From Candidatus Muiribacterium halophilum (GTDB lineage Bacteria; Muiribacteriota; Muiribacteriia; Muiribacteriales; Muiribacteriaceae): DNA of 64,000 nt. Below, in pieces: positions 34,449-59,845 of this stretch. Made by a program: the position numbers and the translations under genes. How positions within the stretch are numbered: position 1 is the stretch's first letter; each line of letters opens with the position of its first letter. The stretch lies in contig PKTG01000083.1 of the NCBI GenBank assembly GCA_002869225.1, positions 74,732-138,731 of the forward strand. The letters run 5' to 3'. The notes beneath the pieces are model-generated. The model searched no databases and was not told where the DNA came from. It worked only from the letters and a program-made list of their open reading frames with translations.

Positions 34449-37400
34449 TTAAAAATCAAGTGGTGGCTCAGGGGGATCTGGCATAGGCATTGGAACAGGA
34501 AACTCAGAAATCCCGTTTATAAGACCAAATACTGGGATACTTACTTTTATAAGATCATTCCAGTCAGCGTTTATATAATTATAATCTGTAGTGGAATTAC
34601 TATATCCGTTTATCGTAAATGTCCCATTATACTCATCAGTACCAGCAGGTCTAGTTAAAATAAAATATCCCTTTTGCTTAGGAGAAGAAAGAAAATTCAC
34701 CTGTGCAGAAGCAGGAGTCATATAATGTCTGACTAAAAAAGCCCCTATAGAGTTGTCCAGGGATGGTCCGGAAAAAAAAGAATTAAAGACACCAAAATCA
34801 AATTGAGTCGCTCCCGGATCTGTAATAAGTGTAAACTGAACATCCTTATCCTTTTGTATATAATTTGGATCCTGATAAACATCCATTCCGTATATCTCTG
34901 AAGTGTCATAAGTTTTCACCTGAAAATCAGCTGAAGTTGAAATATCAACTGGATCAGGTAGAGAAAGTGGATTAATTGAAACTGAAAAAGGAGGATTCTC
35001 GATATAATTACATATAACAGAAGTATTTATTGTGTTAACACTTCCATCAAAACCCTTAAAGTTATTATTTGTAATTACAATAAGATCTGAAGACCCATTT
35101 AGATTAAAAGCATATTCTGAGTTTGAATGATTAAAATAAAATGCCAGCTCATTTAAATTATTTCCATCTATTATATAAAAATCTGAACCGTTTTCCGGTT
35201 TATAAAAAAGATTATTTTTAAAGATAAAAGAGTCAGGAACACCATCAGATGATAACTCAGAAGTATTATAAACTTTAAACAGTTTATCATTGTTTCCTGA
35301 ATAGATAAACTCATTCCCTTCAATAATAAATGGATCATCGACTACGACATTTGAAATCTCAAATGGTGATACTGCACCTAATGAATCTGCAAAAGTATTA
35401 TTGTTTATATTTGCATTATTTAAAGTCAGAGTATCTATCTTCAAAAAACCACCACACGCTTTGTCGGCATCCGGATCAAATCCTGATATATCACCAAATT
35501 CATTTCCTTCTATCAAAAGATTACATGACCCATACTTGAGATAGAATATGTGATCTACCCCATAACATTTTTCAAAAGTATTGTTGAGAATCTCAATGTT
35601 CTGAGGTACAAAATCAAAGTAAATACCTCCGCTTCTATAAAATTCATTATCCGTAAACTCTACCATAGAAGGAGAATCACTCGAAGTGCCGTTTAGACCA
35701 AAGTATTTTGAAGGAGTCGTATTTCCATTTTCTAGCTTTATACCATCAACAAAAAAAGTATAATTATATGGACCGATCTTATTATCTGTAAATTCAAATG
35801 ATGATAATGAGTTTAGTTGACTCATTCTGAACATCGCTGAATTCTTAAATCCTATAATAGAATCCTTTATCTGAAAGTATATACCGTTATAATCGGTATT
35901 AATTACACTATTATCTGATACCATCATAAAACAATCCTCAAATTGCAATACACCATTAACAGTGTTATTCTTAACAATATTTTCCCATACCAGGTTCGCG
36001 TTCTTTATTGAGAATTTCATCTTTGGCTGCATTGAATAAATACCTATTGGAAGATTTTCAGGATCGGTGTCAGGATCTATTCCTCCCCATCTTTCCCAAT
36101 TCTTATAGCTGGAAAATTTTGAATCAAGTACTCTAATATCATTAAATTCAGCATACGGATGTGCAGTCTGTACCGTTATACTTCCTGCAGAAGAAATCTT
36201 TATTCCGTCATCCCCCGTCATAACAACTTGCGGCGTCACTATACCCATAGCACTTCCTGAATTGGCAAATCTCACCTGGGAATTGACCTCTATATCTCCA
36301 AGACATACAAGTCTATGCTCATTTGTAGCAGGATAATACGGTACCGTAATAGCACTATCTATACTCCCCATGACTGCTCTCGGGAATACGTTAACTACTG
36401 CCGCAACTGCACCATCAGGAGTATTGACTATATTATTATCTCCCCAATAGTTATATCTCCAATCAAAAGGATCTGAAAGAGGTACTGGTATATATGAGTT
36501 TGGATCTATATAATCTGATTCTTTCTCAAATATATTAAACGACATCATATTTGATACAGCATTAAACTCATTTCCAGCCTCTGACGCATAAAACCCGAAA
36601 CAATAACCATTTTCTTCACCAAATCGATTGTAGACTATTTCCTGTAATCGTGGTCCATAATTTTCCTCATTTATCATACTCTGGGATCTCATTGCAAAAA
36701 TACAATCAGCTTTATCAACAACTGAGTATTTCAAATTTATATCTCCATATACTCTGAACCCTTCCCACTGTGATTGAGGTTGAAGTCCGGTATCTGTAAA
36801 AATACTCGCTACCTCTGATGTATCCTGATCTATTATCATTGAATCAGCAGAAAATGATGCAGCATCTCCTCCGGTTGATTTTCTTATCTCAATAAACGGT
36901 TTGATAAACTCAGAAAAAAGATACAAACGACCATCCTTAAAATTTGCACTTCCAGAAGAATTTATCCTAAGATGATGTCTTATCACCGATTCACCTTCGT
37001 AGCTTCTTGGTTGATCTATTCTTCCAAAGAGTACATATGGTTCTGTTATAGTATTTGTAAAACTTTTACTTGTATTCTCACCCCAATAATTATATTTACA
37101 GTCTGCAACTTTAGAACTGGTATTTGTTACTTCATTAACACATCTAACAAAATAATTTAACTTAGTATTAATTGAAAGATTCGGAAGCGATCCGGAAAGG
37201 CTCAGAACAGAATCACATCCTGAGAATATATTGTTCATTATATTTAGATCTTTCGGACCACTTGTCATATAATCAGATATATCAAAGAAATAATCACAAT
37301 CGTTTATGTTATTATCAGAAAATCTTATGTCAGCCTCAGTAGCTTCAAGAACATTATCACAGGATGCAAAATCATTGTATGTTACATCAAGTTCTCCTGC

Positions 37401-40400
37401 ATTTGTATATATAACATCAACTGGAATGTTGGAAAACATATTGGATGAAAGTTCAACCTGCGGACAATTGTTCAGATCGATAGATCTAACAACAGTTCCT
37501 GTAAAGATGTTGTTCTCGATCTTTCCGGTGAAAGTATTAAGAACCAGATCATTTTCATTCGCCTTAAAAATATTCCCTTCTATCGTTACATCATCAAAAG
37601 TACCAGTTAATGAAATGGAGGTAAGATTTTTACTGAAGATAGAATCACGAACATCTAAAAAAGAGTTTCCGTGTTTGATTATAGCATTACTGGCATAATA
37701 AAACTCACAGTTCTGCGCAGATATGGAAGCACCTTCATCAAGATCAATTCCTGCATAATCACCAGAAGCAGGAGCTCCTCCTGATGGATTCATACATGCT
37801 CCAAATGTATTATCTTTAAGCGATGTAAAGACAGTTCCTTTAGCATATAAAAACGAACCATCTTCCAGTTTTATTCTTGCCCCTGTATCAAACTTTAATA
37901 TCGTATCATCCTGTATTATGAGTTTTTTTCCGGTCTTTACAACAAGATCATCCTCTATTACATATTGCCTATCAGAAGTCCATACTGTATCCTCATCTAT
38001 CTCACCATTATATTCATTTGTTGTAAATACAAATTCTCTAGCAACAAGATGAGGTATCACCCTTGTAGTATGTTCTGTTTTCCAATTAGACATAGAACTT
38101 GTCAGAACATATTCGTCTACCTTTTGATCCTTATTCTCTACTATTACCTTTATTATCTTTGTCCTTACAGGTTCTTTTATGGAATACATTCCGTTATCTG
38201 TTGCTGCAAATATTGTATTATTATCTTTACTCACTTCAATTTTATATATCTGGGTCACATCAGGTATAGTTACGTTCTTTCTCTGCACAAAGTCTTTCTT
38301 ATCGATATCATAGGTGTATAAGGTGTTACCACTTGCAATATAAAGGAATTTATTATCCCAGGATGTCTTCCAATCCGTTATTGAGTTAAAATCTGTCGAT
38401 TTTGTAAATTCCTTCGTAAACACAGTATCCTGATTGAATCTTATCTTCAATGAATCCAATGTAAGTGAAGCAAAATCATTTGTATCAGAATCATCCAATC
38501 TAAAACCTATTGAAAGAACATTTGATGGAGGAACATTATAGGTATCTGTAAAATTGCCAGTCGCCACAATATCCGTCTTAACAGGTGCATCTGATAATGT
38601 CCCGGATGTCTGATCAAGTAGACTCTTACTTATAATACCGTTATAACAAAAAAATTGGATGTTCCCCTGAACATTCTCAATTTGTGCATCAACAGAAAAA
38701 GTCCTTAGATATTTTGGGATTGGAAATACAAAGGTCCTGTAAAATAGAACAGAACAAAGATTGCTGTTATCATCACTTCCTATTATCGGCTTTGTGTTGA
38801 CCTCTATCTTTCCTGAGTCCTGTTCTATCTGGAACCCTTCATTTGCACCTGTTGAGTAAGATGCAAAGCTGTATCCATTAAAATCATCGAATTCATCCTC
38901 GAACTTATCCTGATAGGAATAAATATCAATTTTTTTCTCAGTATCAGAGAAGGCTACAAATCTGTCTTCTTTGTCTATATTACATAGGTTCTTATAAACA
39001 TCCTCTGTTGAATTTGAGTCTATGTTTTTTGAATAAATAAAATCCACATCTCCATTATCTTTCGAAGTTATAAGTGTATTTCCTGAGGCTGATAGAGTAC
39101 TGGCGATCGCATCATAATCCATATCAGATATATTATTTGTAAAGGTATCTAAAAAGTATATCTTTGAATTCGTCTTTGAAAACATGAACAAAGTCTTACC
39201 ATCTTTGGAACAAAGTATATTGTCTATTCCGGAAAAGTAATTAAAAGTCTTAAGATCTGTAAGTTCTGATGAAAGACTATAAAGAAGCGTTCCATCTGAG
39301 AAAAGCACTTCCTGATTATTTACGGCAAAGTTTCTTATCCCATTTTTGGCAAAATATCTATAATCAGTAATATCCCCTCTGTGGAATCTATATAATCCGT
39401 CGGTTGCAATAATATATATATATTTATTTGTCACTTTGAGATCAATAAGATCATCGTTTATATTTATAGGTTTGTTATAACTAGTTGTCGATTTTGTTTT
39501 CAGGCTATAAAAATTTATTGTGTTCTGACCCAAGTAGACTATCTCACCTGAATCTTCCAGAAAGTCCATATCTATTACAGAACCGTTGTTTATAAGATCT
39601 GCTACACCAAGATAACCGCCATCTGTCTTGAAAAATTTATTGGAATCGCCTTCTTTTCCGCCAAAATAATATTCATCATCTATATATGAGTATACTATTG
39701 ATTCCAGTTTCTCATATTCAAGGCTCACCTGATTAGATAAGGCATCTCCATCTACATCATATTTATATACATAATCTCCACTAGTTGTGAATACAAACTC
39801 GTTGTTAAATACATCATAATAAGCTGATGTGAGTTTAGAAGAAGGTAAAGAAAACTCGTATATAGATGATGTAAGGTCGGTGTTTTCAAGTATTGCTACT
39901 TTATCGGAATAACCTAGGACTGTCTTACCTTGTAAGGTATAAAGAAAATAACAATCTGTATAATCTCCTATCTTTTCAAAATCTACATAAAGACCGTTTA
40001 CTCCGGCAGTAGCAAATTTACCATCAATAAAACACATATCCTCTATTCCCTGAAGAGCTTCTCCTGAAAAGGTCCTTATAAGATTCAATTCTCCCAGTGA
40101 ATAGGAATAGACTTCCATATTATCACCATAATTTACATATATTATCTTCGAATCAGGAGTAGTCGCTATGTTTAAAGGGAGATCGGGCAAAGTCACCTGA
40201 GTCTCGATAGTTCCCGAAAAAGGATTTGCTACAATAAGAGCTTTATTGGAATTATTGACAGCAAACATCCTGTTTCCATCTCTCGAAAGAGTTATATTGG
40301 TTAAGACATCCGGGAAATATGCCAATTTTTCAGGGACAAATTCCAATCCATCAGCTGCTGATATTCTTTGACCGTTAGCATTATATATCTCTACTTTTCT

Positions 40401-40511: not shown

Positions 40512-40739
40512 CTAGCCATCCTCTTTACCAATGCTTCCGTAGTTTATCCTATCCTCATAATCTCTGCTCATTATCTCGTTCATAAGTTCTTCTGCAAGCA
40601 CTTCCATGTTGAAATCTTTTTGAATATTATCTGTAGACTTCATACCAACCATAAAAGCGGTTACTATTGGTGCTACTACGACGGTAAGAAGTGATATTGT
40701 TATAATTATCTCGACAAGAGTAAAACCTCTTTTTTTCAT
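40512..40739 (-). CDS. Prepilin-type N-terminal cleavage/methylation segment heading the giant reading frame (ends at the in-frame TAG)
   Basis: 75 aa beginning MKKRGFTLVEIIITISLLTVVVAPIV, a class III signal with G/FTLVE. It shares its frame with 34449-40511. Confidence 0.7.
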   Translation of the reverse strand: MKKRGFTLVEIIITISLLTVVVAPIVTAFMVGMKSTDNIQKDFNMEVLAEELMNEIMSRDYEDRINYGSIGKEDG

Positions 40740-42208: not shown

Positions 42209-42280
42209 AAATTCTCCTACAAATATTATTTTATAAATGATACCTTTAATCGTTTTTTTGTTCAACAACAAAAGGCATTT

Positions 42281-42478
42281 TAGCAACTCTGTTGCCGTTG
42301 ACAAACTTCGTTTGTATATTCAACTTACGTTGAAATGCTCACCTTTGCTGAGTGTCTCGGACTTTATTTTAATCTAACCTAAACACTTTCCTTAGGAAAG
42401 CATATGAGCTTTAGCTCATCATTTTTTTCGAAGAAAAAATAATTTGGCTTTTGCCAAATAACCGTTATCTGCACTGTT
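42281..42478 (-). repeat. Intergenic multi-hairpin element, copy 1 (possible structured RNA or REP/BIME-like repeat)
   Basis: Eight consecutive stem-loops beginning directly after the upstream stop codon. It is about 90 percent identical by eye to the inverted copy at 50121-50319. On the minus strand the hairpin at 42319-42334 reads TTCAAC-GTAA-GTTGAA, a GNRA loop. Confidence 0.7.
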
Positions 42479-43954
42479 CTAATGTTTCTCAAACACCATC
42501 GAATCACCTGACTTTTTATACTTAAAGATATTTGTTTTATCAGGTAGCTGTTTTAAAATATCTATATTACCAAAAAGATGCATTGGTACAAATAATCCAG
42601 GTCTTAAAGCATCCATTATATCTTTAGCACCTGATAAATCCCGCACCCTATTGTCAGCATTAGAAAATACAATATCAAAAGGTTTTTTTTTCTTTAGATT
42701 TTCAACAGTATCAAAAAAATATTTCACATAAAGTTCAAATTCCTGTTTACTTAGACCTTCCCAATACCAGCTGGCAAGATCACCCCCAAAGTATATTCTT
42801 AATCCTTTCCATTCTAAAATATATGCCATTCCCTCATCGTTACTTTTAATGGTTGACACTTTTAAATCTTTATCTTTAAAGGAATCATTATCCGTTTTTA
42901 AAGATATGACATCTTTTTTATCTATTTTGATGTTTTCAGGAACAAATATTCTAAGCTTTTTATCCTTAAAAAAAGATAGATCCTTTGTAAAATGATCACT
43001 ATGACCATGTGAGAAAAAGAGATTTATATTCTCAGGTGATATTTTATCTATAAGTGAAAAGACATTTTCTTCTATAAAAGATTTGTCAGGTACATCAAAT
43101 AAAATACCCTCCTCACCATGTTTAATTAAAAAACAGTTCTGATAAAAGTAAACAATTTCAAATCTACCCATGTTATCTCCTTTAATCTTCAAAAGATCAT
43201 TTTCAAAAAAAATTATTAAAGATAGAAAAATACATACAAAATATATGTAGTTTTTCTTTACAAACTTTATTTTTATAAGAAATAGATTGATAAAAGCAAA
43301 TACAGAAAGTAAATAAGACTTAAAATATATATCAGTGAAGAATATGGTAATATTGAGTGAATAAATCAAAAACCAAATTGGAAATCTAAGATTAAACCAG
43401 TTGAATACTTTTGCTTCTTTGTCCCCTTTGGTATCGTTTATATCTTTAAAAGCCATCATCAAAAACGCATAAAAAATAAAGTTTAATAGAAATATCTTGT
43501 CTAAACCTTCAGGTCTGTTTAATAATATTGATAAGGCGACTATTAAAACAACAATATTACCTGAAATATTTCTTTTCGCTCTGAATGGAGGAATTGAATA
43601 TATTATTCCACCGGTCATGACAATGATTGATAATATCAATATTTTTTGAGAAAAATAAACAATCGGTATCATTATCCCAAGAAAAAAAAGAAATATTGAA
43701 TAGTTCCTAATATTTTTTCCACCGAGATCATTGATAAGTTTAATCCTTTTAGGCTTATTTATACTATCTTCTTTTTTGTCTGTCAGGATATTTATAGTAT
43801 ATATGAAATTAAAAGGTATTAAAGAAAAAAAGAATGCTAAAGCAAGTGTTTGAAAAACATTGTTATTATCGAAAGAATAAAAGGATAGCAAAAAAACCAA
43901 AAGAAAAATATCAAATCTGTAGGTTTTAGGAAATAATAATATTATTTTTATCAT
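42479..43954 (-). CDS. UbiA-family prenyltransferase fused to an MBL-fold metallo-hydrolase domain
   Basis: 491 aa. The N-terminal multi-TM half has NILTDKKED (NxxxDxxxD) and DINDTKGD (DxxDxxxD). The C-terminal soluble half has SHGHSDH (HxHxDH). Confidence 0.7.
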   Translation of the reverse strand: MIKIILLFPKTYRFDIFLLVFLLSFYSFDNNNVFQTLALAFFFSLIPFNFIYTINILTDKKEDSINKPKRIKLINDLGGKNIRNYSIFLFFLGIMIPIVYFSQKILILSIIVMTGGIIYSIPPFRAKRNISGNIVVLIVALSILLNRPEGLDKIFLLNFIFYAFLMMAFKDINDTKGDKEAKVFNWFNLRFPIWFLIYSLNITIFFTDIYFKSYLLSVFAFINLFLIKIKFVKKNYIYFVCIFLSLIIFFENDLLKIKGDNMGRFEIVYFYQNCFLIKHGEEGILFDVPDKSFIEENVFSLIDKISPENINLFFSHGHSDHFTKDLSFFKDKKLRIFVPENIKIDKKDVISLKTDNDSFKDKDLKVSTIKSNDEGMAYILEWKGLRIYFGGDLASWYWEGLSKQEFELYVKYFFDTVENLKKKKPFDIVFSNADNRVRDLSGAKDIMDALRPGLFVPMHLFGNIDILKQLPDKTNIFKYKKSGDSMVFEKH

Positions 43955-44523
43955 AACATTTCTTTTTTGAACTCTTCTGCTGGAAACATACCGTTTATAG
44001 TGATTTTACCACTTTGATTTATTCTTATCTCAACACAGTTTTTTTGTTCAAATAACTCTTTTTCAGATATTCGTTCAGATAAGAATCTGAAATTCTGATT
44101 CTTTGAACCAACAAAAGGTCTTTTTGCCTCTTTTTCAATTTGAATAAACCTTCCATCTATAAGAAGATCAATATTTTCCAAAAGTTCTGAACACCTCTTG
44201 TCCTTTTTCAGTAATTCATGATATTCATAACCTGTAAACACTATGATATCCTTTTTTTCCTTTACTCCATGGATTATATCATATAGCTGATCAAACTGAT
44301 CGAAAGGTTCACCACCAGATATTGTTATTCCACGAGTTTCCTGTGAAAGTATCAATCCGATAATCTCAGAGACCTTCTTTGAAAAACCTTTATCTTTTTC
44401 CCAGGTATGTTTGGCAAAACATCCATCACATCGATGAGAACAACCCTGAAACCATAAGGCTGTTCTTACACCCGGTCCTTCTACCGATGTTTTTAAAATG
44501 ATATGATTTAATCTTGCATACAT
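43951..44523 (-). CDS. Small radical-SAM activating enzyme (NrdG / glycyl-radical activase-like)
   Basis: 190 aa with VEGPGVRTALWFQGCSHRCDGCF (CxxxCxxC) and ITISGGEP. No glycyl-radical enzyme or NrdD lies nearby. Confidence 0.7.
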   Translation of the reverse strand: MYARLNHIILKTSVEGPGVRTALWFQGCSHRCDGCFAKHTWEKDKGFSKKVSEIIGLILSQETRGITISGGEPFDQFDQLYDIIHGVKEKKDIIVFTGYEYHELLKKDKRCSELLENIDLLIDGRFIQIEKEAKRPFVGSKNQNFRFLSERISEKELFEQKNCVEIRINQSGKITINGMFPAEEFKKEML

Positions 44524-44527
44524 TTTC

Positions 44528-44746
44528 TTAATCCTGAATTATTCTATTTTTATCTACTATCTTATCTTTTAGGTCTACCTTAACGTCTTCCTCATAATAT
44601 TCTTCAGTAAACTCAGATCTAAGGGTCTTTGCATTTAAAATATTTTCAAGAATAGAAATATTTTTAAGACATTTTTTCCCTTTTATATTTTTCGTCTGTG
44701 CTTCTATCGTTCCATCTGGTCTTATCTTGACAATTATCTCTCCCAT
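44528..44746 (-). CDS. DUF2997-like small protein
   Basis: 72 aa. MGEIIVKIRPDGTIEAQTKNIKGKKCLKNISILENIL...EFTEEYYE fits my recollection of the DUF2997 pattern (i.i.pdG.v...v.G.kG..C). Confidence 0.5.
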   Translation of the reverse strand: MGEIIVKIRPDGTIEAQTKNIKGKKCLKNISILENILNAKTLRSEFTEEYYEEDVKVDLKDKIVDKNRIIQD

Positions 44747-44757
44747 AATAGTTCCCC

Positions 44758-45342
44758 CTAAAAATCAATTATTATTCCTTTTCTTTCAGGAGTCATTATT
44801 GTGATCTCCTGTTTGATCTCTTCTGATTTATGAGCAAAATCTATCTGACTCTCAATAGAACCAATATGATGTGGCATGATCTCAAACTTATCAACAAGAT
44901 CATATACATCATCAATAAATATTCCTTCCTGTCGATCATCAAGTATGTTTTGAGCATTTTTTAATGATAATCCAGGCACTTTAAGAAGTTCATTTAGATC
45001 ACAATAGTTTATTTTTATTTTTTGTTCATCATCTATCGATTTTATTTTTTCTTTAATCTTATCACTATCACCAAAAAGATTTTTCACAGGTTGAAATTCT
45101 CTTTCGTCTACTTTTCTTATATATATTTTATCTTTATTCTTTAACGTACCATTTAACATATCTTTTATTAATTTATCATTATAAGGTCCAAATTCTTTCA
45201 TATCCACCAGTAGGATATATTTTTGATCCTCTTTATTTTCCTTAAAAATATTTTCAATATCTATAAGAAAGGAAAATATATTATTTTTAGACCTTTCCGA
45301 CATCAAAGTTATCTTAATCTCATGATCCTCGTTTATTAACAA
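44758..45342 (-). CDS. Hypothetical protein with a ComEA-like helix-hairpin-helix motif
   Basis: 194 aa. DLNELLKVPGLSLKNAQNILDDRQ resembles the ComEA/HhH DNA-binding motif. Confidence 0.45.
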   Translation of the reverse strand: MLINEDHEIKITLMSERSKNNIFSFLIDIENIFKENKEDQKYILLVDMKEFGPYNDKLIKDMLNGTLKNKDKIYIRKVDEREFQPVKNLFGDSDKIKEKIKSIDDEQKIKINYCDLNELLKVPGLSLKNAQNILDDRQEGIFIDDVYDLVDKFEIMPHHIGSIESQIDFAHKSEEIKQEITIMTPERKGIIIDF

Positions 45343-45738
45343 TTAATTAACCGCTATCTTAAAATCTTTAATATCTTTATAATCTAAAAAAACAGGTTTA
45401 GACATAAAGTTTTTATAATGCATTCCTTTAGTGGTAAGACAAAAACCATTTTGCATGTTCTTTTTTATAGTATCATCATAGAAAGCAAGAACCTCTTCTT
45501 CGCCTTTAATATCAGGGAATATGTTTTTTACTTTTTTGATAAATTCAGAAGAAATGTGACCAAAAGATCTGATTCTTTCAGAAGATGTAACATTTTTTTC
45601 AAGTGCTCTAAAAATATCTTTACCTTCACCGAGCAATTTAACTGGTATTTCTTTTTTTTCTAAAACCACTTTTTTTCCACAGTATTTACAAAATTTTGCG
45701 TTTTCATTTATTTTTCTCCTACAGTGATCGCATATCAT
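45343..45738 (-). CDS. Zinc-ribbon protein with a PH/GRAM-like C-terminal domain
   Basis: MICDHCRRKINENAKFCKYCGKK is a CxxC...CxxC ribbon. GGAGG lies 11 nt upstream of the ATG at 45736-45738. Confidence 0.5.
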   Translation of the reverse strand: MICDHCRRKINENAKFCKYCGKKVVLEKKEIPVKLLGEGKDIFRALEKNVTSSERIRSFGHISSEFIKKVKNIFPDIKGEEEVLAFYDDTIKKNMQNGFCLTTKGMHYKNFMSKPVFLDYKDIKDFKIAVN

Positions 45739-45744
45739 CAAAAA

Positions 45745-46473
45745 CTAATCCTCCGTCTTTAATGTGATCACAATACTTCTGTCCTGTTGCCTGGTTTCAC
45801 TTACTACAGTGTATTCAGAATCCTTCAAGTTATCCATAAAATTCTGATAGGTTCTCTTCTGTATTCTACTTCTATAACTTTCATCTAATACACCTATCAA
45901 GGATAACATCTCAGAAGCATCCTTGAACGATTCAAACCTAACAAAAAAAGGCGAATCATTATTTTCCTGAATAAATCTGATACTATTACCAGTTGCATTG
46001 CAGACCAAATCACCATTATTTTCTTCTTCACAACTCATTCCATATTCCCGTATAACCTTTTTTAATAGTTCTTTATCTTTAAAATTTGTTGGAAACTCTT
46101 TTATTTCCTCTATTTCCAATTTTTTTGTATCAATATTTTCTTTCAGATTAGTTCCAGATGATGAATCGAACTCATTTATAAACTGTTTTATAAAGACGTC
46201 ACCTAAATATTTCGGAAAACAAAAAGTCCAGACACCTTCTATTTTATCAATAAAAAAATAATCGTCTTTATCTTTTAGATGAACTTTAAGGCTTCCTGCA
46301 AAATCAATGACATCATAACCGATTTTTTTTAAAGCTACTCCAAGTGCTTCTTTCTCACTTATACCTGAACTTACCCTTATCTCGTTCTTTTCTGCTAATT
46401 CCTGTAGTTTCTGTTCACCGATTACAGCCCTCACTGCAAGAGCTATTGGAATCATCCATATACATACAGACAT
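45745..46473 (-). CDS. Hypothetical protein with two DUF1257 (Ycf35)-like repeats
   Basis: 242 aa. The segments EALGVALKKIGYDV...FFIDKIEGVW and ELLKKVIREYGMSCEE...IRFIQENNDSPFFVRF resemble the DUF1257 pattern. The call is tentative. Confidence 0.4.
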   Translation of the reverse strand: MSVCIWMIPIALAVRAVIGEQKLQELAEKNEIRVSSGISEKEALGVALKKIGYDVIDFAGSLKVHLKDKDDYFFIDKIEGVWTFCFPKYLGDVFIKQFINEFDSSSGTNLKENIDTKKLEIEEIKEFPTNFKDKELLKKVIREYGMSCEEENNGDLVCNATGNSIRFIQENNDSPFFVRFESFKDASEMLSLIGVLDESYRSRIQKRTYQNFMDNLKDSEYTVVSETRQQDRSIVITLKTED

Positions 46474-46508
46474 ATTTTTCTCCTTCGCTAATTGAACTCA
46501 GTCGTGTT

Positions 46509-46705
46509 TAGCAACTATGTTGCTGATAACAACTTTAAAGTTGTGTATTCAACTTTCGTTGAAGTGCTTTGCTTTGCAAAGTGTAAAATCTTTCAAAAAC
46601 TCTTTCTGAACAGAAAGCAAACGAACTTTAGTTCGTCATTCTTTTTTCGCTAGAAAAAACATATTGTTCAATGAACAATCATCAGATTTGTTCTTAAAAA
46701 GAACT
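46509..46705 (-). repeat. Intergenic multi-hairpin element, copy 2 (diverged, with compensatory stem changes)
   Basis: Same hairpin order as copies 1 and 3 but different stem sequences that still pair, for example ACGAAC/GTTCGT against ATGAGC/GCTCAT. On the minus strand the hairpin at 46548-46563 reads TTCAAC-GAAA-GTTGAA. Confidence 0.7.
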
Positions 46706-46709
46706 AATC

Positions 46710-48434
46710 TTATATATCCAATGTTCTTCCACCACGATTCTGATATATATCCTCTTTTGTCTCAAACTCTTCTATATTATCACTATAATCTTTTCTATCT
46801 TCCTTAGATGTGGCCGATACAGCTCTTAAATTAGCCCATGACCTTATACTTAGAATATTTTCCTTCATTGTCTCTGATAATGGTATTGTATCCTTAACGG
46901 CTTTTAAAAAATCATCCGGCCTTATATTTCTTTCCTCCGAAAAACCTTCAAACAAGGCACTTATGACTATTTGTTCTAATTCCGCACCCGTGAATCCTTC
47001 CGTTATAGAAGCTAGTTTTTCGACAAAATTCTTTGATATTTTAAAATCTCCTAAAATATCTTTGTTTTTAAGTCGTTTAACTAGATGAACAAGAAGAATC
47101 GCTTCTCTTTCCCTTTGTGTAGGAATATCTACGAAGAAGATCTCATCGAATCTTCCTTTTCTTAAAAATTCAGAAGGTAATGCATTAATATTATTAGCTG
47201 TGGCAACAACAAATACGGGTTTCTTTTTCTCCTGCATCCATGTAAGAAAGGTTCCGAATATTCTTGCTGATGTGCCTGAATCTCCTCTTCCACCTGAACC
47301 AGAAAAACCTTTTTCTATTTCATCTATCCAAAGAATTGAAGGAGCAACAGCTTCAGCTGTACTAATAGCTTTTCTCATATTTTCTTCAGAACTACCAACA
47401 ATTCCTTGAAAGATCCTACCCATATCCAACCTTAGAAGTGGCAGTTGCCACATAGAAGATATAGATTTTGCAACAAGACTCTTTCCACAACCAGGGACAC
47501 CAGTAATGAGTACTCCTTTAGGTGCAGGAATAGAATATTTCTTTGCTTTATCCTGCCATGATTTGTTTCTTTTCGTTAGCCATCTTTTGAGATTTTCCAA
47601 TCCCCCTACATCGTCCATGTTCAGCTCAGTATTAATAAACTCCAATATCCCTGTTTTTCTTATTATCTGTTGTTTTTCCTCAAATATTACTTTGACATCC
47701 TTTATATTAAGACAACCATCATGTGCCATAGCCCGGGCGAAAGCATTTTCGGCTTCCTGAAGAGTTAGTCCCTGTGCTGCTTTAACAAGTCTCTCTTTAA
47801 CATAATCATTTATCTCAAATTTTATCTTACCTGTATCTTTATTCTGATCTATTATATCATTTAAGACTTTCATGATATCTTCGTAAGCAGGAAGGTCAAA
47901 TTCAAGTATAGTCATATCTTTTTGAAGTTCTATCGGAAGACAAACAACAGGTGATGTGAATACAATATTTTTAGGGCTATTACCATTTTTAATTACCGGT
48001 GATAGATCCCTTAATCTTCTAATCACATTAGGATCAGGTTGAGAATTATTATACCCAAAAAATACATGGAAATCCTTTAGCATAAAAACAGAAGGATTCT
48101 CGTATTTTTCTATAAAACTCAAAGCTTTCATTGGATCTTTAGTATTACTAACCAGTTCGTTTTTTTCGCCTTTTTTTATAAGACCTTTTGTAGAAGTCCA
48201 TGTGTAAAGGTCTCTTTCAGTCTTTATGATCTCTTTCGTAGTTGAGATCTTTTTAAGAATATCCTCAAGTCGATTTTCCTCCCATGTAGGTATGTAAATA
48301 TAAGAAAATCTTGCTTTAAAGAGATCTGATAGATGTTTTATAAATGCATTATTCAAAATAAAACTCCTTCTAGTCGTTTTATGTAAACGGATTTGTTCAG
48401 TTCTTGTAAGTAAATCTTTGTTTTTGTTAAGCAT
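46710..48434 (-). CDS. AAA+ ATPase, Ycf46-like (classical AAA clade)
   Basis: 574 aa with Walker A (GVPGCGKS), Walker B (ILWIDEIE) and a second region of homology (ATANNINALPSEFLRKGRFD). Confidence 0.8.
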   Translation of the reverse strand: MLNKNKDLLTRTEQIRLHKTTRRSFILNNAFIKHLSDLFKARFSYIYIPTWEENRLEDILKKISTTKEIIKTERDLYTWTSTKGLIKKGEKNELVSNTKDPMKALSFIEKYENPSVFMLKDFHVFFGYNNSQPDPNVIRRLRDLSPVIKNGNSPKNIVFTSPVVCLPIELQKDMTILEFDLPAYEDIMKVLNDIIDQNKDTGKIKFEINDYVKERLVKAAQGLTLQEAENAFARAMAHDGCLNIKDVKVIFEEKQQIIRKTGILEFINTELNMDDVGGLENLKRWLTKRNKSWQDKAKKYSIPAPKGVLITGVPGCGKSLVAKSISSMWQLPLLRLDMGRIFQGIVGSSEENMRKAISTAEAVAPSILWIDEIEKGFSGSGGRGDSGTSARIFGTFLTWMQEKKKPVFVVATANNINALPSEFLRKGRFDEIFFVDIPTQREREAILLVHLVKRLKNKDILGDFKISKNFVEKLASITEGFTGAELEQIVISALFEGFSEERNIRPDDFLKAVKDTIPLSETMKENILSIRSWANLRAVSATSKEDRKDYSDNIEEFETKEDIYQNRGGRTLDI

Positions 48435-48510: not shown

Positions 48511-49998
48511 TTATTTGATTTGAATTCTTCCATCTTTATATGGGTTTACTTTTTTCTTAGCTTTGATGTACTTTGCAACAGCATCTTTTAACTGCAAACC
48601 ACTGATTTCTGTGAAGACCTCTTCATAATCATCAAATTTATAACCATCTCCCCCACCAAGTATGTAAGTATTTAAAGCTACAACATAGTATTCATCTTTT
48701 TCTATTTTTCTTACATCATCAAGAGTTAATCTAAAGCTATTGTTATCTGGATAATAAACAACTTTCATTCCGGATATCTGCAAAAAAGCACCACTTAAAG
48801 CAGGGTCTTTTAAAGCACTGAGAGAGTTTTTGAAAGCCTTATAGAGTTCATCACCTTTCATCTTTACTACAACGACCCCATTTTTAAAAGGAAGGACTTT
48901 TTCTATCTGAGCCATAGTTATAGGACCTTTCATAAGTGAACTTCTTATTCCTCCACCGTTCATAAGACCGATTTGGGCTTCTGAAAGTTCTTTTATTGAG
49001 TCGGATATAAGATTACCCATCTCATTCTCATTTCCCCTAACAGATTTTTTATCTACCATATAATTAGCAGTCGCTTCACCAATTACCATATCCGATAGTC
49101 TTATAACATCCTCTTTTGCTTTATCAGCAAGTTTAGCAATCTTTTTATCTTCCATCCATATATTTGATGGCTCAAGCATATCACTATCATAATATTTAAG
49201 ACGATAATCTCCATCTTTCTTCTCATAAAAAGCCCTTAAAAAACCTAAATATTTACCACCCCAACCTGCTTGAGTGACAATAGTATGATTTACAACAGGA
49301 GGATATTTTACAAGAGTATGAGAATGTCCACCTATTATTATATCAAGATCAGAAAACTGCTCAGCTATTTTCATGTCATTATCAAGTCCCTGATGGGATA
49401 TCATAACAAATATATCAGCTTTATCATGATTTTTTTTGAGTATGTCATTTACTACAACAGCGGGTTCTCTTACTTCGATTCCAAGCTTTTTAATATCAGG
49501 TGAAAACCTTTCTATCATTGTGGTTGTTATTCCAAAATAAAGGATTCTCAAATTTCCTGTTTTTACTATCTTAAATTGTTTATACAACGGTTTACCCTTA
49601 TAAAAAACATTTGCACACAGAGCTTTATCTGAAAGTCTCTTCAAAGTATTTCTCATACCGGAAAAACCATAATCAAATTCATGGTTTCCAAGTGTAAACA
49701 TATCAAGTGGAAGATTCTCATAGATAGTGGCAACTGATTCTCCAGTATCGTAGTTCGCATATAAATATCCTGAAATAAAGTCCCCTACATCTATAAACAA
49801 TGTGTTAGGAAGTGCCTTTTTGATTATTCTGACTTCATTGGCGATCCTTGCTATTCCACCCTTAAGATTTCCGTTCACATCAGCCTCAGGAAGTAGATGT
49901 CCATGGAAATCGTTTATATGCAATATCCTAACGGGTTCATAAGAAAACGTAAATATAATAGTTATCAAGATAAATACAGTAAAAAGATGCTTTTTCAT
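48511..49998 (-). CDS. Bifunctional metallophosphatase / 5'-nucleotidase (UshA family), secreted
   Basis: It has the motifs HINDFHGH and GNHEFDYG plus a C-terminal 5'-nucleotidase domain. The likely start is MKKHLFTVFILI, with GGAGG 6 nt upstream. Confidence 0.85.
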   Translation of the reverse strand: MKKHLFTVFILITIIFTFSYEPVRILHINDFHGHLLPEADVNGNLKGGIARIANEVRIIKKALPNTLFIDVGDFISGYLYANYDTGESVATIYENLPLDMFTLGNHEFDYGFSGMRNTLKRLSDKALCANVFYKGKPLYKQFKIVKTGNLRILYFGITTTMIERFSPDIKKLGIEVREPAVVVNDILKKNHDKADIFVMISHQGLDNDMKIAEQFSDLDIIIGGHSHTLVKYPPVVNHTIVTQAGWGGKYLGFLRAFYEKKDGDYRLKYYDSDMLEPSNIWMEDKKIAKLADKAKEDVIRLSDMVIGEATANYMVDKKSVRGNENEMGNLISDSIKELSEAQIGLMNGGGIRSSLMKGPITMAQIEKVLPFKNGVVVVKMKGDELYKAFKNSLSALKDPALSGAFLQISGMKVVYYPDNNSFRLTLDDVRKIEKDEYYVVALNTYILGGGDGYKFDDYEEVFTEISGLQLKDAVAKYIKAKKKVNPYKDGRIQIK

Positions 49999-50120
49999 AA
50001 AGATCCTCCGCAACAATTTTTTTCTTCAATTATAATTCAGTTATACACTTTTAGCAAATAATGAAAACAGTAAACGATAGAACTTTTTTCGTAAAGCATA
50101 AAGCGTGAAGCGAAACGGAT

Positions 50121-50319
50121 AGAACTGTGTCGATAAGGTTATTTGGCTAAAGCTAAAATATTTTTTCTGTGAAAAAAATGATGAGCTAAAGCTCATATGC
50201 TTTCCTACGGAAAGTGTTTAGGTTAGATTAAAAAAAAGTCCTCGACACTCAGAAAAGCTGAGCATTTCAACGCAAGTTGAATATACAAACGGAGTTTGTC
50301 AACGGCAACAGAGTTGCTA
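50121..50319 (+). repeat. Intergenic multi-hairpin element, copy 3 (inverted relative to copies 1 and 2)
   Basis: It is the reverse complement of copy 1 with only scattered differences. The hairpin at 50266-50281 reads TTCAAC-GCAA-GTTGAA on the plus strand. Confidence 0.7.
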
Positions 50320-50447
50320 ATCTGATTTAAAAATATTTCTGCTTCAAAATATTAAAATAATATGCTACAATTTAGGTATTATATTAAACAGTCCCTGTTT
50401 TGCTGATTATACAGTTTTACGGTTTACTGTTTTTTTTCGGAGGATAA

Positions 50448-52853: not shown

Positions 52854-55838
52854 CTAATAAAAAGCTACTTTCAATAAATTATTTGTGGAATCAAAATATG
52901 ATACAACAGGAATCTTATCATTATAAAGATCCATTGAGATATATGACCCCACATTACCAACTGAATCAACATCTGTATGAATAAAATTACCTGAACCTGT
53001 ATAATCTATCGATACATAAAGATCCTGATTAACATTATCCTGATAAGCAAGATAGAATGCACCTTCCTCACCTAGCTCAAGATCTAAATAGTTTCCTGTA
53101 TTAGCAGGTGTAAGATCCATTCCCATATTGACAAAATTCCACATACCTGGTGACACATCGGCTCTTTTCATTACTATTGCATTGGAATTTGGATTAAAAT
53201 ATGCTACTACCGCCTTGTCAAATTGATCGTATTCAACATCAAAATAAGTAAATGAACTACCTGCTGCTGCGATCTCATATGTATCGACCCAACCAGGTTG
53301 CGGTACTGCCTGATCAAGACTTGTCGCTTTAGAATATATAAGACTTGTTTGAACTTTCGACATAGCTATCTTTATATTCTGACCGGCAGATGAAATATAA
53401 CCGATTTCCTGCGAATCCCAACTTACCCCGTTCCATTTAAAGAGCTGTGGACTGGTATCAGTCGCATTGTAGGCCGCAATTAAAGGAATCTCTCTTGTAT
53501 CATATACTATATCGTTAAAAAGCCCAATATCAGGTCCTGCTGAACTTACATAAGAAGAACCTGTCCATATGTCCCCAGTAGGACTTAGTATATATTTAAG
53601 CTGAGCTGCTGATGCATCATAATAGGCAACATGAATCTGATCAAAATCATCGATTACCATAGATGGTGATTGAATATTTCCAGTATCAACTGTGTTAAAA
53701 TACCAATTTTTCCTATCAAACATAGCGTATTTGATCAAGGAATTCCCAGTATCCGAGTAAACTATATGAACATTACCTTTAGAATCAATTTTAAGCTCAT
53801 CGCCTTGACAAGTTACATTATCAACTACCTGAATCTCCCAAGTGGAAATTATTCCAACTTCATTTGTTACAAATACACCATTTTCAAAATAACTTATTTC
53901 AAGTGTCGATGGACCATGTAAAGTCGGCTGGAAGAAATTGTTTCCTTCGAGCTTACCTAATCCTGATTTTATTTTAGCTTCAAGACCATAATAAACATTT
54001 CTGGTCGTTCCATCATTATACTGGACTTGCGGATTAAGCTGAGACATATAGGCACCTCTATAAGAGGAGGTCTGTATCTCATATGTATCAAATAAAAGAG
54101 AGGTTGGAGCACTTTTTATTATTACATCAGGTACAAGTAATACTCCGACTATGACTTCTACTGTTCTTGACTCAGTTATAGCTCCACCTGTGTTTATATC
54201 GATTCTATAGACACCTTCATTGACATTATCAAGGAAGTAATAACCTGAAGCATCTGTAAAAACATTATTTACAAGTGTATTTCCTGTATCGTAAACTTCA
54301 ACACTTGCTCCACCAACAGGAGTAAAGAACTGATTCCTTACAAAACCTGTTATTCTTCCTATCTGAGCTTTTGGAAGCATTATTATCTCAGGTGTTATCG
54401 TTGTTCCATTAAACACATTTGCTATAACATAAGATTGTTTTGTTCCATCAGATGCTTTAACGGTATATATACCAGGATTTACTCCACTAAATGAATAGTT
54501 TCCTGTAGCATCTGCTGTTGTACTTAAGATAATATTGTTATTTTGTGTAAGTTCAACCGTAGCACTTGGAACTGGTGTATTATCAAAATATTTTACCTGA
54601 CCCGCAATATTTCCAGGTGTAAAAGAAACACTTTCTGTATCAAGATACAATGTCATTGCAACCTCAGTAGAACCTGGAAATACAGTTGCAAGAACATCAT
54701 CATCTCTATATCCTGTCTTATCTGAATAAATGATATAACTTCCAGCGGCAATATTACTGAAAGAATAATAACCACTTGCATCTGTATAAATATTTCCTAA
54801 TGACTGCTGATTTATCCATATCTCTACACTAGCTCCTTGAATAGGTGAACCTGAGATATTTTCAAGTACATAACCTTCTATATTTCCCGTACCTGCTCCT
54901 GCTGTCGCAACATACATGACAAGATTAGGTGCGTTTATATCTTTTCTTTCAGGACTTATTATTACTGTTGGAATATAAACAGAAGAAAGACCTGTCTTAC
55001 TTGATACTATCTGATAACTTCCTGCTGCAATTCCGCTGACATTATAATCGCCATTTGAATCAGTTGTTGTTGTTCCAACAGTTGTCGCTCCGATCTTTAT
55101 TTCTACTGTAGCACCAACAATAGCATTCCCGCTCTGATCTATTACCTTACCGTAAATCGCACCTGAAATAGTTGGTACATTTAATGTCATAGAAGTAGCA
55201 GAAGTATTCACTCCAGCAGATACACTTACAGACTGCTGAAGTATCTCATATCCATATCCTGCCCACACTTCCATAGTATAGCTTCCCACAGGAACATTAC
55301 TTATAGTATATGCACCACTTGAATCAGAGACTGCCATATAGGATGTTCCAAGCAGATATGCCATTATACCGTTATGACTGGTCTTTACATTCATAAAAAC
55401 CGTACCACTTATACTTCCAGTTGCTGTAACCTGAATATTAAGTGCTGTCGGTGCTTCCTGTCTGACCGAGACTTTCATCGCCTGACCTATTGTTGTCTGC
55501 CCCTGTTTTGCCTGTATAAAGTAGTCTCCTACAGGTACATCCTTAAACTCAAAACTTCCTGTCTCATCTGCCTGTGTATATATAAGTGACGGTACATCCT
55601 TTGAAACAGCGTTTCTTACCTTTGATACCGTCAATGTCTGTCCATTTATTAAATGTTCTGCTATAACTAAAGCTCCTGCTACATCTTCACCTTTTAACGT
55701 CCCTTTTAATATCCCATAACCAGGATTTTCTGCTACTACCTGTGTGTTTCCTCCATCATCGCTTCCTCCGAAACACCCTACAAGCATAAACAGCATGATT
55801 ATTGTTGTTATAACCAGATTTCCGTATGTCCTTCTCAT
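52854..55838 (-). CDS. Large surface lipoprotein: tandem CarboxypepD_reg-like (Ig/prealbumin) domains plus C-terminal propeller-like repeats
   Basis: 994 aa with the lipobox MLVGC. It has repeated G.Y.I.NV..G.Y modules and C-terminal HVAYYD...LKY repeats. It is a paralog of 56669-59677. Confidence 0.7.
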   Translation of the reverse strand: MRRTYGNLVITTIIMLFMLVGCFGGSDDGGNTQVVAENPGYGILKGTLKGEDVAGALVIAEHLINGQTLTVSKVRNAVSKDVPSLIYTQADETGSFEFKDVPVGDYFIQAKQGQTTIGQAMKVSVRQEAPTALNIQVTATGSISGTVFMNVKTSHNGIMAYLLGTSYMAVSDSSGAYTISNVPVGSYTMEVWAGYGYEILQQSVSVSAGVNTSATSMTLNVPTISGAIYGKVIDQSGNAIVGATVEIKIGATTVGTTTTDSNGDYNVSGIAAGSYQIVSSKTGLSSVYIPTVIISPERKDINAPNLVMYVATAGAGTGNIEGYVLENISGSPIQGASVEIWINQQSLGNIYTDASGYYSFSNIAAGSYIIYSDKTGYRDDDVLATVFPGSTEVAMTLYLDTESVSFTPGNIAGQVKYFDNTPVPSATVELTQNNNIILSTTADATGNYSFSGVNPGIYTVKASDGTKQSYVIANVFNGTTITPEIIMLPKAQIGRITGFVRNQFFTPVGGASVEVYDTGNTLVNNVFTDASGYYFLDNVNEGVYRIDINTGGAITESRTVEVIVGVLLVPDVIIKSAPTSLLFDTYEIQTSSYRGAYMSQLNPQVQYNDGTTRNVYYGLEAKIKSGLGKLEGNNFFQPTLHGPSTLEISYFENGVFVTNEVGIISTWEIQVVDNVTCQGDELKIDSKGNVHIVYSDTGNSLIKYAMFDRKNWYFNTVDTGNIQSPSMVIDDFDQIHVAYYDASAAQLKYILSPTGDIWTGSSYVSSAGPDIGLFNDIVYDTREIPLIAAYNATDTSPQLFKWNGVSWDSQEIGYISSAGQNIKIAMSKVQTSLIYSKATSLDQAVPQPGWVDTYEIAAAGSSFTYFDVEYDQFDKAVVAYFNPNSNAIVMKRADVSPGMWNFVNMGMDLTPANTGNYLDLELGEEGAFYLAYQDNVNQDLYVSIDYTGSGNFIHTDVDSVGNVGSYISMDLYNDKIPVVSYFDSTNNLLKVAFY

Positions 55839-59600: not shown

Positions 59601-59677
59601 TTTCCTCCAAAGCACCCGACAAGCATACTCATCATTATCAGAGTCGTTATCAGTAGATTCCTATAAGTTCTTCTCAT
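56669..59677 (-). CDS. Large surface lipoprotein, paralog of 52854-55838
   Basis: The likely start is MRRTYRNLL, with GGAGG 5 nt upstream. The N-terminal third is nearly identical to its paralog and the remainder is progressively diverged. Confidence 0.7.
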   Translation of the reverse strand: MRRTYRNLLITTLIMMSMLVGCFGGNDDGGSTPIVAENPGYGILKGTLKGEDVAGALVIAEPLINGQTLTVSKVRNAVSKDAPSLIYTQADENGSFELEKVPVGDYFIQAKKGGTTIGQAMKVSVRQEARTALNIQVTATGSISGTFNMSGASTHNGVMGYLLGTSYMGISDASGAYTISNVPVGTYTMEVWAGYEYDIAQQVVSVSAGTTTSASAMTLTKPTISGNIYGKVIDQSGNAIASATVELKSGATVVSTTTSDANGDYTISGITTGSYELYASKSVLTTVYMPTVIISPERKEINAPNLVMYVATAGAATGNIEGYVVEEGTGSPIQGASVEVRLNQHVLGNVFTDATGYYSFSNITAGDYALEVYKSGYWDEGYLVTVIAGTTEVASVTELEVDNSSGSTPGNVTGQVLYYDNTPVDVATIEVMSNNNVVASYTLNGADSGMYSFTGLTPGLYTIRASKDIENENFVVFQMYSGASDVAPDIRLQNVRSGNIAGFVRNHNGLPINNAGVQFYDSTGSLYSTTNTDASGYYNLNPVNEGVYRVDCVVTGAQTQSRTVEVIIGYTNVPDFFVRPTLNSLALSQTNINTCVVKGIDLSSIFGIANYSDGSTYEVYSDLFWRVKQGTGDLERSYFYTDSHQQGTLEAKYIENGISQSAYLGFTSTWEVDVVDSTNDVGMYSSLDIGKDGRIHVAYYDNTNADLKYAYYDGTWSIPETVDSTGNVGDYCDLVVDDFDNVHIAYQDVTNANLKYALNYGAGWATENVESTADNVGLYIDIDYDTNELPVIIAQDATNSRPIVYHYDGAAWQTEPVEDVVSITGSYNSLIVSPNTHQYRIAYANESFNALNYGTLEITGLWSTKEVATFSTAPTYTDIEESDSDVYIAAYDTMAMQGFVKSTPVSSGAITDVVNAQATPVNGTYIDLELGEYDGIYVAYYDSVNGDLGYSYAQVGDTSWKYNTVYTTGDVGSYLSFKLIKKKYTVFSCYDATNTDLLVIMY

Positions 59678-59845
59678 CTTCCCCTCCAAAACTTTTTTAA
59701 TATTTTAACATTTATCAATATTTTTAACAATATGTTTATAAGTAGAATTATATTAAATAAAACGTTCAATTTATTTTTTTATTACATTCTCAATAAATTT
59801 ACAGTATAATTAAATTAGTATTGAGTATTGTAGTAGGAGGTCCCT

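Follow-up and report, generated by a model that had tools for sequence, protein, structure and literature searches.

A Ycf46-type ATPase operon of Candidatus Muiribacterium halophilum as one copy of a widespread five-gene system with its own radical-SAM enzyme

The stretch of Candidatus Muiribacterium halophilum DNA analyzed here (64,000 nt of contig PKTG01000083.1, in the following "the window") carries between positions 42479 and 48434 of its minus strand seven open reading frames (ORFs) that all point in one direction and are separated by gaps of 3–11 nt, with one ATGA overlap and one hairpin-rich spacer behind the first gene. They encode a Ycf46-type AAA+ ATPase, a DUF1257-like protein (DUF, domain of unknown function), a zinc ribbon, a helix-hairpin-helix (HhH) protein, a DUF2997 protein, an NrdG-like radical S-adenosylmethionine (SAM) enzyme and a UbiA-like domain fused to a metallo-β-lactamase (MBL)-fold hydrolase. 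A preliminary description of the window had read them as seven tightly packed, co-directional genes; direction, packing and coordinates hold, but the number of genes is six because the zinc-ribbon ORF and the HhH ORF are a single gene. The comparison with related loci shows that the operon is one copy of a widespread five-gene system without earlier description, which comprises the ATPase, the DUF1257-like protein, the HhH protein, the DUF2997 protein and the radical-SAM enzyme.

Composition of the cluster

The ATPase (574 aa, 46710–48434; Pfam AAA, 1.8e-29) is 59–66% identical to proteins that their sources name ycf46 or AAA family ATPase, and its best match among the searched GTDB representative genomes reaches 60% identity. 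Its D2-like domain contains Walker A (GVPGCGKS), Walker B (WIDEIE) and a pore loop (GIVGSSE), and these motor motifs are invariant in the homologue alignment. The N-domain (residues ~30–260) is a degenerate D1-like domain without Walker A, in which the position of the P-loop reads YIPTWEEN. In an AF2 model (predicted local distance difference test, pLDDT, 79.6) this D1-like domain is predicted confidently and the tail (557–574) falls below 50; Foldseek aligned ~550 columns of the model to D1–D2 of p97/Cdc48/Rix7 with TMq up to 0.60. As is characteristic of the Ycf46 type, an N-domain of ~270 aa precedes one active AAA domain of the classic clade. The protein does not have nucleotide-binding motifs in both AAA domains, as type II ATPases such as Cdc48/p97 do: The tandem fold is present, the P-loop of the N-domain is absent. 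The ATPase resembles the type II unfoldases Cdc48/p97/VAT in its tandem D1–D2-like fold and its classic-clade motor, but its D1 domain has lost the nucleotide site and an N-terminal double-psi barrel is absent. The protein ends in RGGRTLDI, in which R567, G568, G569, R570 and D573 do not vary across 78 homologues. Such a disordered tail with a conserved end suggests docking, as in the cofactors of Cdc48/p97/VAT with their short binding motifs and the HbYX tails of proteasomal ATPases; it differs from HbYX in that its motif is RxhD/E-aromatic and common to non-ATPase partners too, and no peptidase is encoded. To the anti-phage systems IetAS/IteA the ATPase is linked by its classic-clade AAA+ domain through partial matches (IetA/IteA models, 7.8e-20 in PADLOC; 57 bits in NCBIfam, far under the cut-off of 510), whereas the IetS protease is missing and the partners are different. 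ATPase loci of the Mycobacteriophage Corndog type were rejected as relatives of the system, as they have no DUF2997, DUF1257 or radical-SAM partners.

Within the triad of AAA+ ATPase, DUF1257 and DUF2997 proposed in the preliminary description, Pfam upholds the first and the last member, whereas the DUF1257 assignment stays below the Pfam threshold and is nevertheless supported by profiles. The protein in question (242 aa, 45745–46473) has no Pfam DUF1257 (PF06868) match at E ≤ 0.1, but a profile of syntenic DUF1257-like proteins detects it at 2e-15 (hmmsearch) with two domains in tandem, the first repeat being weak (33–109) and the second clear (~122–240), and it begins with a hydrophobic segment (MSVCIWMIPIALA). 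A word-seeded search returned only the protein itself, which reflects a limit of sensitivity: phmmer on the related loci found full-length homologues in Clostridium beijerinckii (4e-36), Muiribacteriota (1e-33), Riflebacteria (1.5e-33) and Paenibacillus. Moreover, hhalign of this family against three proteins that pass Pfam DUF1257 yielded 96.7% (E 3.8e-10). These profile comparisons identify the 242-aa protein as a divergent homologue of DUF1257 in tandem form. Its single-sequence AF2 model is poor (pLDDT 65.5), and the weakly GNAT-like Foldseek matches of this model (E ≥ 0.01, TM ≤ 0.25) carry no meaning.

The DUF2997 protein (72 aa, 44528–44746) matches PF11211 at 8.7e-15 (54.8 bits, cut-off 24.1), and alignments of 18 and then 50 homologues display an N-terminal β-hairpin, a conserved G-x-x-C (KGKKC) and an EYY motif. 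It is followed by the radical-SAM enzyme (190 aa, 43951–44523; Fer4_12, 2e-35, plus Radical_SAM), which possesses a CSHRCDGC cluster motif with invariant C28, C32 and C35 as well as GGEP. The family that it fits best is NrdG (TIGR02491), where it remains at 124.8 bits below the equivalog cut-off of 126.1; in the NCBIfam ranking NrdG (2.7e-36) and PflA (3.7e-17) precede QueE or viperin (~1e-4 to 1e-5), the nearest characterized relatives all being protein-glycine activases, and the phage family phrog_626, "anaerobic RNR small subunit", is matched at 1.3e-37. Like NrdG, PflA and other glycyl-radical activases, the enzyme has the small size of a partial barrel, a CxxxCxxC cluster and the SAM motif GGE. 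It differs from them in its linkage to an AAA+ operon, its occurrence in aerobes, a subfamily-specific C-terminal extension (~161–188) and the lack of a glycyl-radical partner. In hhalign, this extension resembles the N-terminal hairpin of DUF2997 (94.6%, E 6.9e-8). The lack of a partner nearby had already been noticed in the preliminary description and extends well beyond this locus: No ORF of the window carries a glycyl-radical signature (R[VIT]xG[YFW]) near its C-terminus, a glycyl-radical neighbor accompanies 1/47 system-type loci vs 7/31 NrdG-type loci, and in viral contigs a glycyl-radical-like ORF lies within 8 kb at 0/14 system-type loci vs 18/66 other loci.

The HhH gene (44758–45741, 326–327 aa) appears in the window as a zinc-ribbon ORF (45343–45741) and an HhH ORF (44758–45342), which four further assemblies of the species show as a single gene of 326 aa. 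The window has TAA at 45343–45345, whereas the four assemblies have TCA (Ser; changed position 45344), and an alternative genetic code could be rejected as the cause of the longer gene call, the codon in question being plainly TCA in the other assemblies. The intact protein matches both Zn_Ribbon_1 (25.5, cut-off 25) and HHH_3 (30.1, cut-off 27), and its middle domain of ~90 aa matches a Muirbacterium partner protein at 1e-7 and the N-terminus of BnzA (PADLOC) at 4e-8. As HhH partners of other lineages begin with a transmembrane/YxeC, GYF, TPR or bPH module instead, the zinc ribbon represents the N-terminus that the HhH protein has in this lineage and not the separate component it had been taken for. 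The "PH" label attached to it could not be verified, residues ~42–131 of the zinc-ribbon ORF having no Pfam bPH match and scoring only 0.1% against the bPH_3 region of a Conexibacter partner (hhalign). The HhH part had been called ComEA-like, and an HHH_3 domain, often behind a membrane anchor in the HhH partners of the system, is indeed common to both; however, the protein reaches 20.5 bits against the ComEA family (TIGR01259, cut-off 152.35), has no competence genes nearby and bears a system-specific C-terminal tail. The positive-inside rule and the tail, which is common to the cytoplasmic ATPase, indicate that the HhH domain is probably cytoplasmic.

Distribution and co-variation of the components

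To delimit the system-type radical-SAM subfamily we required a score of at least 170 against its own profile, and loci with at least 5 kb of flank were taken as well flanked. Among loci collected through the radical-SAM enzyme, the ATPase, DUF1257 and DUF2997 genes accompany the system-type radical-SAM gene at 22/27 well-flanked loci but none of 17 lower-scoring NrdG-type genes (0/17), some of which adjoin NrdD-like genes instead. When loci were collected through the ATPase, DUF2997 and the radical-SAM enzyme recurred in Firmicutes, Bacteroidota, Actinomycetota, Brachyspira, Proteobacteria and archaea, in several cases with an HhH protein encoded between the two. This gene set is kept through at least 12 different gene orders. 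Its hosts include Clostridium, Bacillus, Paenibacillus, Actinomycetota, Bacteroidota, Melainabacteria, one cyanobacterium, Planctomycetota and methanogens (a Methanobacterium); among them are Clostridium beijerinckii, C. botulinum and Paenibacillus as well as the strict aerobes Microbacterium, Paenarthrobacter and Rhodococcus. Plasmids of Bacillus, including those of Bacillus cereus, and of Paenarthrobacter carry the set under RefSeq names that are generic only, viral contigs of 124–231 kb encode it, and one ATPase sequence is common to many Clostridium genomes (111 blocks). Consistent with the preliminary description of an expanded triad, the genes of the radical-SAM enzyme and of the HhH protein vary together with the triad across phyla, archaea, plasmids and viral contigs; both proteins are integral parts of the system.

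The loci fall into two types. Type A, to which the window belongs, has one to five HhH partners; type B is devoid of HhH and instead encodes an SF1 helicase or a RecA-like or Hsp70-like protein. Within type A, a relative labeled Muiribacteriota/Absconditabacterales has a tandemly duplicated pair of DUF1257-like and HhH genes (loci L055/L056/L058, 5181–8352), and a sheep-rumen bacterium has five HhH paralogues in a row, all of them tail-bearing (locus L071, 6467–9975). Within type B, loci L010, L029, L098 and L104 contain an SF1 helicase (AAA_11/AAA_12, ~1100 aa) together with proteins of ~500 and ~700 aa between ATPase and DUF2997, and this insert is common to archaea, Pseudoalteromonas and Desulfobacterales, which suggests that a unit of seven genes has moved horizontally. 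Giant-phage-like IMG/VR contigs of 143–180 kb are arranged as ATPase / RecA-like (KaiC-like) / DUF2997 / radical-SAM / DUF1257 (L151, L154, L156, L163, L168, L220), whereas Anaerolineae (L112, L131, L133, L135) encode an Hsp70-like protein of ~530 aa between ATPase and DUF1257. At loci L010, L017, L019, L029, L043 and L098 the type B DUF2997 proteins end in Q-R/K-G-G-x-K or similar, with a C-terminal Gly-Gly, and the ATPases in an NPF[IVL][EQ] motif.

A triad without radical-SAM enzyme exists in Pseudomonas phage SM1 and in cyanobacteria. The Ycf46/Ycf35/DUF2997 trio of cyanobacteria and red-lineage plastids (Synpcc7942_0416–0418) is a close known counterpart of the system with respect to the ATPase family (59–61% identity to ycf46-named proteins), the two small partners and the operon; it lacks the dedicated radical-SAM enzyme and the tail-bearing HhH proteins, and the DUF1257 member of the window is, in contrast, duplicated, hydrophobic at its N-terminus and below the Pfam threshold. 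In red-algal plastids, ycf35 and ycf46 are kept or lost together (PMC5940233). The cyanobacterial three-gene ycf46 operon is induced by severe stress and darkness in a (p)ppGpp-dependent manner, and an interaction of Ycf46 with the RecA-fold protein KaiC has been reported (bioRxiv 10.1101/2025.07.21.665879), which makes the RecA/KaiC-like partner in the viral contigs noteworthy. What is known of the function of the triad itself comprises this stress-linked expression and a CO2-utilization phenotype cited in the same source.

For the five-gene system itself, NCBIfam release 20 has no dedicated family, and no description was found in Pfam or the searchable literature. PADLOC-DB 2.0 returned only partial matches to unrelated systems (IetA, pVip, BnzA N-terminus); DUF2997, the DUF1257-like protein and UbiA-MBL drew no match, and models for the two DUF proteins and for a radical-SAM enzyme of this kind are missing there, so that the combination is, as the preliminary description had supposed, one that these resources do not describe.

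The last gene of the operon (42479–43954) has a different status. Its product combines a UbiA-like domain (residues 1–~250) with an MBL-fold hydrolase (~264–491), the latter being supported by Pfam (Lactamase_B_3, 1.1e-8, 35.6 bits, cut-off 24) and by an HGHSDH (HxHxDH) motif. The UbiA half has no Pfam UbiA (PF01040) match and only weak NCBIfam matches to BchG/ChlG/HPT, although PF01040 does recognize stand-alone homologues (E down to 1.7e-19); by eye, motif 2 is intact (FKDINDTKGD, KDxxDxxGD) and motif 1 is degenerate (NILTDKKED instead of NDxxDxxxD). A word-seeded search of 5.8 billion clusters found only the protein itself, and the genome collection contained no relative. An exhaustive HMMER search of 1.84 billion representatives gave 810 matches, of which the best 150 each cover one half and are ordinary UbiA or MBL proteins (Pfam UbiA or Lactamase_B). 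A conserved pair of separate UbiA and MBL genes was sought elsewhere, and none was found. The fusion is also absent from ~140 related loci, the closest relatives included: In the nearest ones (Muiribacteriota; ATPase 64–66% identical; same upstream 5'-nucleotidase), a STAS gene follows the radical-SAM gene. Consequently, UbiA-MBL is a species-specific neighbor outside the conserved system, adjacent by chance or by lineage, and its ATGA overlap with the end of the radical-SAM gene, a sign of translational coupling, speaks only for local co-expression. Thus, of the fusion enzyme proposed as a system component, the MBL half stands and the membership falls; the suggested envelope modification falls with it, having no comparative basis once neighborhood conservation fails even at the nearest relatives.

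Shared tails, a possible mechanism and its rivals

The tail of the ATPase recurs in its partners. A C-terminal motif R-x-[LIVM]-[DE]-[FYLIVW]-COOH is found in 32/35 type A ATPases, always as RGGRxxD/E-x, and in 41/43 HhH partners, compared with 4/3314 background ORFs (0.1%), two of which adjoin type A systems. In the other assemblies of the species the intact HhH protein ends in ERKGRIIDF; in the window its conserved Arg is replaced by Ile (position 44774, ATA vs AGA in four other assemblies; five residues from the C-terminus). Together with the DUF2997-like hairpin on the radical-SAM enzyme, this common tail turns a bare gene neighborhood into specific predictions of which parts touch.

The contacts and the chemistry that we infer from these sequence features are as follows. 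The ATPase hexamer would act as a protein-remodeling motor, and DUF1257 and DUF2997 would serve as its adaptor or docking platform, as they may do where cyanobacteria, plastids and phages have the triad without a radical-SAM enzyme. Through the common tails, the ATPase and the HhH adaptors on DNA would both bind to one site of this platform, which would put the machine on DNA, while the radical-SAM enzyme would be recruited through its mimicry of the DUF2997 hairpin. Like its activase relatives, the enzyme may then abstract a hydrogen atom from an extended polypeptide that the unfoldase exposes or hands over; candidate targets of the radical are the invariant G-x-x-C of DUF2997 and the invariant RGGR tail. 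In its general form, a p97-like remodeling motor with DUF adaptors, DNA-directed HhH adaptors and a recruited radical-SAM enzyme acting on polypeptide, this is the best explanation we can offer, and we give it tentatively, at somewhat below even confidence. That all details hold at once, so that a new machine exists in which a p97-like unfoldase feeds polypeptide to a radical-SAM enzyme docked by its DUF2997 hairpin and targeted to DNA via the common docking tail, is a doubtful proposition. The physiological role is likely a stress or dormancy-type response or DNA-associated remodeling rather than that of a classical immune system.

Several observations weigh against the remodeling mechanism. 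Type B systems are without HhH and without the tail motif, and their SF1 helicase, RecA-like or Hsp70-like partners suit a nucleic-acid target or a conflict role equally well. In some lineages the HhH tails are free of glycine (ERxxDL), which rules the tail out as a glycyl-radical site common to all systems, and in the strict aerobes among the hosts a glycyl radical is unlikely to be stored. Foldseek found no match at E ≤ 0.001 with the DUF1257-like model (pLDDT 65.5). Finally, the HhH gene of the window has suffered two damaging changes, so that the local copy may be defective.

Two other explanations are serious rivals. The radical chemistry could be directed at a nucleic acid or nucleotide, in DNA repair, DNA modification or the synthesis of a modified nucleotide, with the HhH, helicase or RecA-like proteins holding DNA while the ATPase remodels nucleoprotein. 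Apart from Hsp70, the accessory modules are all nucleic-acid binders (HHH_3, SF1 helicase AAA_11/AAA_12, RecA-like), small Fer4_12-type radical-SAM enzymes include QueE (weak matches), NCBIfam knows a putative DNA-repair radical-SAM family with HhH (TIGR03916), and the reported KaiC interaction of Ycf46 again involves a RecA fold. We nonetheless regard this possibility as rather unlikely: QueE and viperin are far more distant from the enzyme than NrdG and PflA are, the domain it has in addition is a protein-like docking hairpin, and in cyanobacteria and phages the triad functions with no radical-SAM enzyme at all. Comparably improbable in our judgment is an anti-phage or inter-element conflict system in which ATPase and adaptors sense infection and the radical-SAM enzyme or the variable accessory proteins are the effector, even though the patchy distribution across bacteria and archaea, the plasmid copies beside toxin-antitoxin, integrase, HNH and insertion sequence genes, the lineage-specific accessory genes with up to five HhH paralogues in one locus, and the weak IetA/IteA matches of the ATPase and the BnzA match of the HhH middle domain all speak for it. 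PADLOC has no model for its two DUF proteins and its radical-SAM enzyme, the core is itself present in large viral contigs and phages and the simpler triad in plastids and cyanobacteria, the synteny between genera is stable beside a housekeeping 5'-nucleotidase, many Clostridium genomes share one ATPase sequence, and the cyanobacterial operon is under stress and (p)ppGpp control.

Two further readings are close to excluded. An ordinary NrdG, working for an NrdD whose gene lies elsewhere and standing beside the triad without functional meaning, would agree with a score just under the TIGR02491 cut-off and with the phrog_626 match, but the enzyme forms a separate subfamily with a conserved C-terminal extension, follows the triad where NrdG-type genes do not, is found in aerobic actinobacteria and has no glycyl-radical enzyme near it, in the window or at the viral system loci; we consider this reading extremely improbable. 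Scarcely better stands the idea that the cluster as a whole modifies the envelope or lipids, with the UbiA-MBL membrane enzyme as its effector. The ATGA overlap implies co-transcription in this species, and the DUF1257-like protein and many HhH partners have hydrophobic N-termini; nevertheless, the fusion is missing at all of the ~140 related loci, with the STAS gene in its place in the nearest relatives, and no second fusion is among the best 150 matches.

For decades Ycf46, Ycf35 and DUF2997 have stood in cyanobacteria, plastids and many bacteria as conserved "hypothetical" genes without a mechanism, and a large branch of the Ycf46 family is always accompanied by its own NrdG-derived radical-SAM enzyme. 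Moreover, a sizeable group of "orphan NrdG" annotations probably does not represent ribonucleotide reductase activases. If the remodeling mechanism is correct, an ATP-driven radical modification of proteins would be widespread in bacteria, archaea, plasmids and giant phages, and the Ycf46/Ycf35 genes of cyanobacteria and plastids would gain a first mechanistic handle. Since the system occurs in Clostridium beijerinckii, C. botulinum, Bacillus cereus plasmids, Paenibacillus and giant-phage-like contigs, experiments are feasible.

Hairpin-array repeats, window-specific substitutions and neighboring genes

The spacer between the ATPase gene and the DUF1257-like gene (46474–46709, minus strand; 236 nt) is packed with hairpins of 6–8 bp (z = −3.61; hairpin coverage 0.61 vs a window mean of 0.035) and contains a weak terminator-like hairpin. 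The preliminary description had seen in it an element that separates the ATPase from the rest of the system; the array is real and strongly structured, but it is a dispersed repeat and not a part of the system. Three copies of ~170–240 nt, related by BLAST and with the highest hairpin density of the window, lie within 8 kb, one of them inverted. The second copy (42238–42478, minus strand; z = −3.99) is located directly 3' of the UbiA-MBL stop codon and holds the likely operon terminator (ATTTGGCAAAAGCCAAAT plus a T-run), and the third (50161–50400) is in the opposite orientation on the plus strand, upstream of the 5'-nucleotidase gene. In all three, the hairpins follow in the same order with compensatory changes in their stems, and all seven terminator-like sites of the region are inside the three copies, the terminator-like hairpins being on both strands. 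An Rfam search of the spacer gave only a sub-threshold match to freshwater-2 (26.6 bits vs 49.9), and the spacer cannot be aligned to the equally structured spacer of Muiribacteriota relatives. These features point to a REP-like dispersed repeat that would punctuate transcription.

The two lesions of the HhH gene belong to a wider pattern. The window and the four same-species assemblies differ at ~nine positions in the 6.6–7 kb compared, and within 35745–56473 (20.7 kb) the window differs from all other assemblies at 22 positions, of which 21 are G:C→T:A transversions, whereas the polymorphisms among the remaining assemblies of the species are mostly transitions. This looks like a library artefact of the 8-oxoG type or a MutY/MutM-like mutator lineage; given such a signature, both lesions may be artefacts.

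Upstream of the cluster lies a 5'-nucleotidase gene (48511–50016, minus strand; Pfam Metallophos and 5_nucleotid_C). Its synteny with the ATPase cluster is restricted to the closest relatives (Muiribacteriota; loci L053–L056), and it is a neighbor outside the five-gene system. Large repeat-rich proteins of surface type flank the cluster (34449–40346, 1965 aa; 52854–55838, 994 aa, with many CarboxypepD_reg repeats; 56669–59689, 1006 aa), and a small protein encoded at 40512–40739 begins with an N-terminus resembling that of type IV prepilins (MKKRGFTLVEIIITISLL).

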